Virus record (IMG/VR): IMGVR_UViG_3300008267_012518
Reading direction: 5' to 3' (one strand)
DNA length: 64,000 nucleotides
From: a virus
Below, one piece after another: positions 57,001-60,000 of this stretch (the stretch's first letter is position 1; each line of letters starts with the position of its first letter). The position numbers are program-made.

Positions 57001-60000
57001 AAGATATTGTTGAAGAAAAAACTACATTCGCATTTGATAATGATATGATTGAGAAATATGGTGAAGTCCTTTCCACTTTGATTATGAATTGTGATGATAT
57101 CTCAGATGATGATAAGGAGAGAATTATCAAAGCTTCTACATCATATAGTGTAGCTAAAGGAACGATTGATAAAATGAAAGATTTTGGCCCGATTTTCGAG
57201 ATAGTCGAGGAAATCAAACCAGTAATCTCACTGAAAAATGTTGAAGTTGTTAAAGGTTAAAAAAAAACCCCCACTCATGGTGGGGGTTTTTATTTTATTT
57301 GATACTTATTCTACATCTTTGTATTTCAGATGTTTGTTGATTTTTTGTGAGTATTTGATAAATGCCAGTAGGTAGATTTATTTTTATTTGGTTTTCAACT
57401 CCATATAAATCACCAGATTCCAAAACTTGTCCTACAGAATTTATTAATTTATAACCAACTGGTTTTCCAGTTTTATTTATTATAAACATCTTATCACTTG
57501 CTGGATTTGGCATAATTGAAACATTACCTCCGATTTGTGGTTTAGTACTAGTCGAAGGGTCTAACACATCTGAGTTATTTCTTGGTAAGAGTTTCATATT
57601 TGAAAAACTATAAGTTAAGATACCTCTGATACTGATTAATTGTTGTCCAGGTTGTACAACTATCACGGGGACATTCATCGTCCCATCTGTAGTTGCCCAA
57701 AGTGGTGAATTAACATAACTCACATTTAATGAGGAGAAACTTGAACTAGCTTGGCGACCTGTTAGGATTCTACAACCACTACTCGGATCATTTACATCGT
57801 TACCTACTCTCCACTCACCATTATTTCTCAATTGAGCAGCATCAACATTTGTATCAACTACAAAAAGATCACCAACCGGATTCTGCAATTCAACCAACAT
57901 ACTTTCGTACTTTTCATTGGTCGCGAAATCATAAGTGGTCAATAAATTTGGATTTAATACTGTGGGTGAGGGTGGGGTTTGACCAGTCTGAATGACTTGA
58001 ACATTCGAGATATTACTAAGTCTAGTCAGACCAAAATATTCCTCAACCACTCCAGTAACAGCAACTCTGTCACCAATAGATAGATTGGTGATCAAACTGC
58101 CACCATTGACCCAAATACCGGACCAAGCTAACTCACCATCTTGTTGAATGTAAACATATCCCAAGTTATTATTCTCAGAAGATGCGGTGACTATTCCTCT
58201 CAATGTCAAGGTATCTCCAACATATCCAGATCTACCAATAGGATATGGTGTGTATTGTATATCTCTGATAGTACACCCAACATTACTTATCGTGTAAAAT
58301 AAAGGGACGGATTGACCAGGTACATTTGGTAAAACGGTGGTATTATTAACATTATCTTTAGCTCTAAAATAATACCTAACCAAAGTCCCTACAGGTTGTG
58401 GTGGAATTGAAGCTGAATACCTCGCTCCTAGTGGAGTTGCAGTCAATGCTGTATAATTGGTACCGTCAGTTGAATATAAAACTTCAACAGATGTAACTAG
58501 ACTATCGTCCGTAATGTCAGCAGAGACTATTAATGGGTTCAAGGAATTGGGACAAGGTTGACTTTTTCTCATGTTTCCAATCGATGGTGATGAAGCTCCT
58601 TTAGTATAATGGGTCAGACTAAAAGGGTTTATGTTATAACCTCTATTGTTTGGTGAGGTGTTACTACACCCGTTCTTCCAACCCTCAATTACTCCTTTGA
58701 TAGTTGTATATTGGTCTCCAATGTTGGGTGGTACAAAACCATTTGTTAGTCTTTGTGTTTTAAATCTATCATAAACCCAAATATGATTTTCATTAGCGTC
58801 TTTTACTAAGAGTCTACATCTATCACCACTCAAAGTAACATTGACTACAGTGACATTCGAAATTTCAACAAAATTACCCTCTAATGGTTCACCTGTTATG
58901 ATATGGTTAGCAGGCTGTCCATCACTGTTTAGATTACCATTGAGTTGACCGACAGATACTGGGGAGGATTGTGGTGATGGACCAGGACTGAAACTAATTA
59001 GCGTGACTCCATTATCAACTGGTGTGAGTTGAGTTTCGCCATTATTTGCACCTTGAGAACCTAGAAATTCTGTGACTGTACCAACCACTTCGATAGTATC
59101 TCCTGCAACAAGAGTGTTGATATCAGTTGGTGTTGTAGCTGATGAAGCTCTTACGGTGATATTTCCGAAAGGCGTGGATGGCGTAGCCGTTACATCTCGA
59201 ATCCATATCCATCTGGTTTGTCCAGTAGTTTCATTGAGACCACCTGGTGTTACAACAACAGCCCTTACTTTGACTACTTGATTTAAATAAAGAGGATTTG
59301 GTCCATCTGTACATGAATCTGGTACAAATTGACCAGACCATCCTTGTATTTCTTGTATTGTGACATTTGGTATTTGAGAAAAACCAAATGAAAAAATAAA
59401 AGAAAATAAACAAAAGAGAATATTTTTTTTCATTAATAATTTTTTTTTACAGATTATATTATTACATTTGTGTGTTGTTCAAAGGAAATAAGGATCACAA
59501 AAAAAAAACTTTATAAAATTCCTTGACAAGTTCGAAAAAATATACTATCTTTGTAAAACAAAATCAAATAAGAAATATGACAAACTTTATAGACTTATCC
59601 ACCGTAGCAGATTTCAAAGTAATGCCACAAGAAATTCGTGATCGCATTCAAAACCTTTCATCCCGTGAGCGGAAATACTTCCGCACAATGTGGCCAAAGT
59701 CTGGTGTACTCTACATCACTTCTAAGCCAGGTATCGCCAAATCAGCAATCGCTCGTTCAATTGCGGAAAAAATGGGTTTTCGTTATATGGATATGAGACT
59801 TTCTATGAATGATGAAAGTGACTTTAAATTCCCATACCTTCGTGAAGAAAATTACGATGGTAAAGACATCAAGGTAAGTGGTACGGCTGTACCAGAATGG
59901 GCATATGAGGCTAACCAACAACCAACCATCATTCACTTCGAAGAGTTGAATAGAGCACCTCAATTCGTTAGAAACGCAGCTCTTCAAATTCTACTCGAGC

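Follow-up and report, generated by a model that had tools for sequence, protein, structure and literature searches.

We analyzed a stretch of 64,000 nucleotides (hereafter, the window) from the uncultured virus recorded in IMG/VR as IMGVR_UViG_3300008267_012518, and examined one gene in it that encodes a protein of 712 amino acids (aa). Positions 731 to 64000 of the window are the first 63 kb of a 178-kb phage record (78% complete according to CheckV), and the gene stands 56 kb inside it, as a single open frame whose two neighbours are both on the opposite strand. The record also encodes a T4-like split topoisomerase II, a phage ATPase, methyltransferases, an exonuclease, a collagen-like tail fibre and a minor tail protein, and its source is a very large (jumbo) uncultured Bacteroidota phage with a genome of about 230 kb. 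The product of the gene, here called the cargo protein, is composed of a Sec signal peptide, two tandem OB-fold modules around an Ig-like domain, and a type IX secretion system (T9SS) C-terminal sorting domain (CTD) (Table 1). Its origin lies in a bacterial operon that also encodes a TonB-dependent receptor and a PorV/PorQ-family barrel: the cargo protein is a near-orthologous copy of a single subunit from this operon. This relationship had been missed in the preliminary description of the locus, and it changes the mechanistic reading of the gene.

The preliminary description had proposed, from the sequence alone, a Sec signal peptide, two ExeM/YhcR-like OB-fold modules around an Ig-like domain, no recognisable catalytic domain and a type A T9SS CTD, all in a gene linked to a phage; it proved correct in every point that could be tested. 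The N-terminus (MKKNILFCLFSFIFSFGFSQ, followed by IPNV) shows the n-region and h-region of a signal peptide and, as its end, an SQ of the cleavage type, which by eye are laid out as MKK, a hydrophobic stretch and FSQ directly before IPNV. A lipobox was looked for at this end and none was found, so the cargo protein is not a lipoprotein. A virion protein was also ruled out, because the Sec signal and the CTD imply export.

The C-terminus of the cargo protein is a type A T9SS CTD. TIGR04183, whose cut-off is 23, matches aa 640-705 with 26.0 bits and, when the genome was scanned, with 28.9 bits, while PF18962 scores 23.2 bits on this protein, under its gathering score of 27, and is matched at E ≤ 1e-3 by 62 of 62 aligned family members. 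Two solved CTDs of F. johnsoniae, 8glj_D and 8glk_D, are also retrieved by the family profile (E 1e-9). In an AlphaFold2 model built on 62 homologues, with a mean predicted local distance difference test score of 87, the extreme C-terminus is predicted to form the beta-sandwich of solved CTDs (Z 10-11), just downstream of a low-confidence linker (aa 629-636). The last 76 modelled residues superpose on the mirolase CTD 8qb1 (Z 11.1, root-mean-square deviation (rmsd) 1.4 Å over 74 aa), on the NucA CTD within the translocon, 8glk_D (Z 10.6, rmsd 1.9 Å over 73 aa), and also on the PorZ CTD (5m11) and 8glj_D. Within the family, positions P642, N643 (at least 90%), P644, G668, G690 and Y692 of this domain are invariant or nearly so.

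Table 1. Positions of the cargo gene, its domains, its surroundings in the window, and the homologous bacterial operons
Feature	Position	Strand	Basis or remark
Cargo gene, 712 aa, accessory (moron-like)	57295..59433	-	Single open frame; both neighbours on opposite strand
Sec (SPI-type) signal peptide, aa 1-20	59374..59433	-	Read from sequence; family consensus end AQ or SQ
Tandem-OB module A, aa 21-285	58579..59373	-	hhalign to module B 99.6%; OB-fold matches Z 10-11.5
Ig-like / FN3-like domain, aa 286-384	58282..58578	-	PPAD Ig-like domain Z 13.0; profile E 8e-7
Tandem-OB module B, aa 385-628, ExeM/NucH N-terminal-like, DUF5689-related (by profile)	57550..58281	-	NF033681 E 5.8e-17; HIN-200 and OB matches
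T9SS type A CTD, aa 637-712	57298..57525	-	Hidden Markov model, profile, fold
Candidate promoter element AATATAAT, 7/8 match to phage upstream motif AATATATA	59453..59460	-	19 nt before ATG
G+C-rich hairpin flanked by A and T runs	57261..57294	.	Read from sequence
Conserved 207-aa phage gene	56637..57260	+	Left border of variable slot
Phage AAA-type ATPase (phrog_1297)	59523..60725	+	Right border of variable slot
IscA/HesB-type Fe-S protein	56123-56452	+	
2H-SAK phosphoesterase-family protein	55097-55840	+	
Bacterial operon loci	L002:7786-18757; L003:6489-19054; L018:4461-16969		Also L009, L011, L012

Modules A and B are homologous duplicates (hhalign probability 99.6%, E 1.8e-24), and the domain between them (aa ~283-385) superposes on the Ig-like domain of P. 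gingivalis PPAD with Z 13.0. Module B matches the ExeM/NucH nuclease family NF033681 at E 5.8e-17 over its non-catalytic N-terminal part (positions 2-214 of the 546 in the profile); the match scores 61.7 bits, where the cut-off is 300, is not full-length and leaves the EEP domain uncovered. No catalytic domain was found in the cargo protein by Pfam, NCBIfam, PHROGs or fold search. Module B also resembles the OB-fold family PF01336, weakly and under threshold. With the module profile, 5746 cluster representatives were retrieved at E ≤ 1e-3, and one protein, P0109, which passes the cut-off of PF18942 (DUF5689), was matched at E 2.7e-103; judged from these profiles, the module is related to DUF5689 at the superfamily level via P0109. 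Domain-level fold searches were needed because Foldseek with the whole model was uninformative and matched many beta-rich multidomain proteins. Searches with the modules returned nucleic-acid-type OB folds only (MCM-N, the AspRS/AsnRS anticodon domain, SSB, RPA and PriB; Z 7-11.5). The first OB fold reaches Z 7.7-9.5 to many OB folds, and the best 50 VIA matches of module B are all nucleic-acid-binding OB folds. Foldseek with the whole module retrieved the HIN-200 tandem-OB domains 2oq0, 4l5q, 5z7d and 4jbm_B (E 1e-3 to 7e-3), which include p202 and p204 bound to double-stranded DNA.

The OB part of the module is also found in other architectures. It occurs in 5-14 tandem copies in proteins of 1000-1900 aa (for example, among P0109, P0138 and P0147), and as a single module followed by a CTD in proteins of ~340 aa.

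The cargo gene is an integral part of the phage genome. It occupies the same slot, between the same neighbours, in four other assemblies (P0003, L005/P0004, P0016 and P0013; that is, two JGI 3300059473 contigs, an IMG/VR record from sample 3300042691, and NCBI GCA_041447055.1), with protein identities of 70-81%. Its G+C content at third codon positions (GC3) is 0.229, as in the surrounding phage genes, compared with 0.31-0.53 in the bacterial copies. In the 178-kb record we found no bacterial housekeeping genes, no paralogues, no further CTD proteins and none of the other genes of the bacterial operon described below. Close full-length homologues do exist on bacterial contigs, which could suggest that bacterial DNA had been mis-joined to phage DNA or that the record is a bacterial region. 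Such an artefact is extremely improbable given the identical phage slot in five independent assemblies, the phage-like GC3, the distinct clade formed by the phage sequences, and the lack of any other operon or housekeeping gene in the record. An assembly chimera was thus set aside on the grounds of synteny, GC3 and clade structure. The gene was also sought in other phages: GenBank phages gave no match by megablast (with 14 kb around the gene) or tblastn (with the protein), PHROGs has no family for the protein, and IMG/VR holds the gene in two records, i.e., one other besides that analyzed here, as found with both a protein query and an alignment query.

The homologues of the cargo protein split by genomic context. 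Those with at least 70% identity are located in phage synteny and those with 64% identity or less on bacterial contigs, P0028 being the exception. In a maximum-likelihood tree, 14 phage-type sequences constitute one clade (SH-like approximate likelihood-ratio support of 100) that lies several nodes deep among bacterial sequences. The cargo gene was captured from bacteria of the Bacteroidota host lineage. The nearest bacterial copies (59-64% identity) belong to Catalimonadaceae and to a metagenome-assembled genome labelled 'Spirosoma fluviale', and a homologue is present in 33 of 301 sampled Bacteroidota genomes (about one in nine), almost always at 28-35% identity. The P0028 copy (JGI 3300059473), which is 61-64% identical by alignment or BLASTP, resides in a different phage-like context with split topoisomerase II genes and a phosphoribosyl pyrophosphate synthetase gene as neighbours. 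This copy may stem from a second, independent capture, or from an older one after which the region was rearranged, so that the gene would have been captured either once or twice.

In bacteria, the homologues (34-64% identity) were found in the same operon order in all 11 loci examined: an exported protein of ~725 aa, the cargo homologue, a protein of ~480-540 aa (with a lipoprotein signal in Schleiferia), a TonB-dependent receptor with a PF13620 N-domain, a PorV/PorQ-family barrel (NF033709, 128 bits against a cut-off of 90) and a beta-propeller lipoprotein of ~400 aa. The receptor thus accompanies the cargo homologue in the 11 bacterial loci and not the lone phage copy. In three loci (L003 of Schleiferia thermophila, which can be cultured, and Crocinitomicaceae L009 and L018), the operon is headed by a gene for a secreted EEP nuclease, which in Schleiferia carries a CTD. 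GroEL, ribosomal protein L28 or gldKLMN genes are located near the operon on bacterial contigs, and in Schleiferia the operon directly follows gldKLMN. No known domains were found in the ~725-aa and ~480-aa partners. The tail of the ~725-aa protein (L002:9721-9990 and homologues) looks CTD-like, with RGLYLFSVKD and GKFTIIK motifs and a long insertion. When this protein was tested as a distant paralogue or as ending in a CTD, hhalign was not significant (CTD profile 19%, the other comparison 3%), and in the Atlas it matched unnamed Bacteroidota clusters only. The operon is conserved and apparently uncharacterised.

The phage copy is under strong purifying selection. Conservation was assessed at the 67 alignment columns in which 38 bacterial homologues agree to at least 95%: all 14 phage copies keep 66 of these, and the sole fixed phage-specific change is Y541W. 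Between the window and L005, synonymous sites are saturated (proportion of synonymous differences about 0.70), and non-synonymous divergence in the three body domains is only 0.08-0.14, giving ratios of non-synonymous to synonymous divergence (dN/dS) of about 0.03-0.07. A decaying passenger gene was ruled out because of these low ratios and of the intact open reading frames (ORFs) in all 14 phage-clade sequences.

Despite such conservation, the gene is not part of the phage core. The slot between the 207-aa gene and the ATPase gene (window 57261-59522) was compared across IMG/VR phages that are related and have the flanking block in common. Nothing fills it in L026, a contig of 464 kb; in L024 and L025 it holds an ORF for a 530-aa endonuclease-like protein, in L027 it holds HNH ORFs, and in L023 it is missing together with the 207-aa gene. 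The slot is therefore an insertion hotspot, and the cargo gene is accessory because in related phages homing endonucleases take its place or the slot stands empty. One sub-lineage has acquired this moron-like gene outside the core and retained it under strong purifying selection; it is nested in a cellular family, it is present in some related phages, and the orientation opposite to both neighbours and a terminator of its own also fit the status of a moron. This terminator would be the hairpin at the 3' end of the gene, which from its sequence could act in both directions and be shared with the convergent 207-aa gene. L005 has a terminator hairpin at the same position with a different stem sequence.

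Published loci help to interpret the bacterial operon. In the ddbABCDEF locus of B. thetaiotaomicron, which is needed for the depletion of exogenous DNA, the DUF5689 protein DdbD is the proposed DNA-binding partner of the TonB transporter DdbC and resembles the p202 HIN domain (PDB 4JBM) (bioRxiv 10.1101/2025.03.18.642099). In Riemerella anatipestifer, a DUF5689 protein and an adjacent PF13620-type outer-membrane protein (RA0C_RS04920/RS04915) are essential for natural transformation (PMC8459023). Because the operon described here is built on the same logic, in that a nuclease is combined with a tandem-OB surface protein and with a TonB receptor, it is probably, by analogy, a T9SS-dependent system for the capture and import of extracellular DNA. 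Links to DNA are thus provided by the homology to the accessory region of ExeM/NucH, the likeness to DUF5689 and HIN domains, and the Riemerella transformation pair.

On this basis, we tentatively favour the reading, to which we give somewhat less than an even chance, that the phage copy is a working subunit of a host system for extracellular-DNA capture and uptake, captured from bacteria and kept as such. It is established for type A CTD cargo that the protein is first translocated by Sec and its CTD then recognised by the T9SS. We infer from this that the cargo protein would cross the inner membrane by Sec and that its CTD would then be recognised by the T9SS of the host, as neither SprA, PorV-family proteins nor other T9SS parts were found in the phage record. 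The genomes in which the nearest homologues reside (G001 and G002) have SprA and several PorV-family genes. The passenger, consisting of the two tandem-OB modules and the Ig-like spacer, would in this way reach the outer membrane surface or the outside of the cell. Since it is a near-orthologous copy of one operon subunit, it would most likely plug into the outer-membrane assembly of the host itself, with its TonB-dependent receptor, dedicated PorV/PorQ-family barrel, lipoproteins and, in some genomes, secreted EEP nuclease. The phage copy could then maintain or raise DNA uptake during infection, for example by nucleotide scavenging for the ~230-kb genome. The full scenario, in which infected cells of environmental Bacteroidota import DNA debris through a T9SS-dependent TonB machine that uses the phage subunit and so feed the replication of this genome, is possible and, in our view, rather doubtful.

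The nature of the ligand bears directly on this reading. With the same export route and the same host complex, the modules might instead capture another polymer or nutrient, which would still make the gene an auxiliary uptake gene. The acidity of the modules, the weakness of the DUF5689 and HIN matches, the 8 of 11 operons without a recognisable adjacent nuclease and the ~725-aa and ~480-aa partners without known domains would all suit a ligand other than DNA. We nevertheless consider such a ligand decidedly unlikely in view of the significant homology to the N-terminal region of ExeM/NucH, the EEP nuclease that heads the operon in three distant loci, and the exclusively nucleic-acid-binding OB folds among the best 50 VIA matches of module B.

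Several observations weigh against DNA uptake by a phage-supplied subunit. PF18942 matches module B with 24.3 bits, under its cut-off of 28.6, over profile positions 21-144 of 217 only, and at E ≤ 1e-3 it is matched by only 12 of 62 family members. The HIN similarity is also weak (Foldseek E about 1e-3, template modelling score 0.3-0.4). The mature protein and the two OB modules are acidic (isoelectric points 5.1, 5.0 and 4.4), which is unusual for a general DNA binder, and OB folds can bind sugars or proteins as well. The likeness to DdbD, DdbC and the Riemerella proteins is drawn from published descriptions. Moreover, of the six or seven genes in the operon, a single one is present in the phage record, so any benefit to the phage would require that this subunit is limiting.

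The main alternative to an uptake function is receptor masking, or superinfection exclusion. According to this explanation, an overproduced phage copy would cover or remodel the TonB-receptor complex, or another T9SS-dependent surface structure that serves as the phage receptor, and would thereby block further adsorption and shield progeny from cell debris, much as the lipoprotein Llp of phage T5 does at FhuA. In favour of this, the gene is an accessory moron in a variable slot, and its partner in the bacterial operon belongs to the TonB-dependent receptors, which are classic receptors of phages. In addition, phage resistance in Flavobacterium reportedly maps to genes of gliding and of the T9SS, so surface proteins that depend on the T9SS appear to matter for adsorption. 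However, masking by this protein would work only by dosage, and no link was found between the phage tail fibres and the operon receptor. There is also no sign of a specialised blocking variant, because the phage copy has almost no lineage-specific changes (66 of the 67 conserved residues kept, one fixed difference). We therefore regard masking as unlikely.

The upstream region of the gene touches on the same question. Of the 219 ORFs, 40 have the motif AATATATA upstream, among them the gene for the tail fibre and further ORFs of very large size; the cargo gene carries the near match AATATAAT, and its counterpart in L005 has AATATAAA 20 nt before its ATG. The Bacteroidota-type sequence TAnnTTTG precedes 35 ORFs of the record, often 4-7 nt from the ATG, among them both neighbours of the cargo gene; no exact Bacteroidota -7 element of this kind was found upstream of the cargo gene itself. 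The two motif classes, AATATATA and TAnnTTTG, probably mark late and early genes, respectively, and AATATAAT hints at a phage-type, perhaps late, promoter element. Such a late-type element, if real, would suit the protection of progeny at lysis, as in masking, and would suit nutrient scavenging less than an early gene would, which is a further point against the uptake reading.

A different outcome is expected if the phage protein and its host orthologue compete for the dedicated PorV-family barrel, for the receptor or for the T9SS itself. DNA uptake or competence of the host might then be shut down, or the T9SS loaded during infection. In favour of such interference, the phage carries a single subunit, and the signal peptide and the CTD evolve faster (dN/dS 0.4-0.5, with their motifs kept) than the constrained body. 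Yet purifying selection extends along the whole passenger and the bacterially conserved residues are kept, which would not be expected if only docking mattered; a dominant-negative role is therefore less likely, and we consider interference improbable.

Other features of the region were also recorded. Upstream of the 207-aa gene, and near the cargo gene, is a gene for an IscA/HesB-type Fe-S assembly protein with the C-terminus CSCGESFSV, for which PF01521 is detected in the copies of relatives; on the P0003 contig, RmlD-type and DegT-type sugar genes are found in place of it. Positions 1 to 730 of the window are not on contig C1 of the record. They contain repeated units of ~230 nt, each of which ends a small minus-strand ORF, and these ORFs are paralogous small genes.

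If the uptake reading is true, large Bacteroidota phages carry and conserve a subunit of a host outer-membrane uptake machine, beyond stray enzymes, and the idea of auxiliary genes would be widened to include the surface of the cell and the use of extracellular DNA as a resource. The cargo gene would then be the first viral auxiliary gene for extracellular-DNA scavenging, and its product the first phage-made T9SS cargo to assemble into a host outer-membrane complex. It would also offer a natural handle on which subunit limits the operon system. The bacterial operon, with two large exported proteins of which one has a proven CTD and the other a CTD-like tail only, may correspond, in a T9SS-dependent form, to the DNA-uptake loci of Riemerella and to ddb, and may be a more rewarding object of study than the phage gene.

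With regard to novelty, the preliminary description had stated that no characterised phage-encoded T9SS substrate was known to its author. Our literature search likewise found none that had been characterised experimentally. The claim was nevertheless overstated, because predicted phage T9SS cargo has already been published: T9SS CTD genes of a 'Cryophage' were called phage-encoded T9SS cargo (Bellas et al. 2020, PMC7468147), and ORFs with T9SS sorting domains were found on crAss-like contigs (de Jonge et al. 2019, PMC6949934). Taken as no more than a T9SS-tagged phage gene, the finding is thus not new; new are the non-enzymatic, duplicated OB cargo, its origin as one subunit of a host operon, and its strong conservation in phage. 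The Cryophage and crAss-like cargo resembles the present protein in having a Sec signal and a T9SS CTD, in being presumed to be secreted by the host on in silico grounds only, and in being accessory and variable. The former proteins are, however, an endoglucanase, GH39 and PA14/BACON proteins, whereas the present one is a non-enzymatic tandem-OB protein, a near-orthologous copy of an operon subunit of the TonB-receptor/PorV-family type, and conserved, not hypervariable, among its carriers.

Further known systems can be compared with the cargo protein. The Llp lipoprotein of phage T5 blocks FhuA. As is predicted for the cargo protein, this phage protein uses host export and acts on an outer-membrane TonB-dependent receptor; unlike the cargo protein, Llp is a small phage-specific lipoprotein and not a copy of a host subunit, and nothing was found here that would link the operon receptor to adsorption of the phage. 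The ExeM/NucH/YhcR-type nucleases (NF033681) share the homologous non-catalytic N-terminal region with module B, whereas the cargo protein lacks EEP or any other catalytic domain, the EEP nuclease being a separate protein encoded upstream in three bacterial operons. Compared by description, a parallel is found in the ddb and Riemerella loci, which combine a DUF5689-type, HIN-like tandem-OB surface protein with a TonB-dependent receptor that has a carboxypeptidase-regulatory-like N-domain, and encode secreted nucleases in the locus; the bacterial operon pairs its tandem-OB protein, whose DUF5689 and HIN likeness is weak, with a receptor of this kind. The extracellular DdbA, DdbE and DdbF are signal peptidase II lipoproteins, in contrast to the T9SS CTD and dedicated PorV/PorQ-family barrel found here, and the present protein further differs in having two modules and an Ig-like domain, a DUF5689 score under the Pfam cut-off, and its gene on a phage. 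Finally, cyanophage PstS is a host-derived substrate-capture subunit that is carried by a lytic phage and presumed to work with the host transporter. The cargo protein differs in its envelope compartment, in its presumed substrate and in a route of secretion by the T9SS, and what the two have in common is that a phage has taken a single subunit, for the cargo protein a putative capture subunit, from its host.

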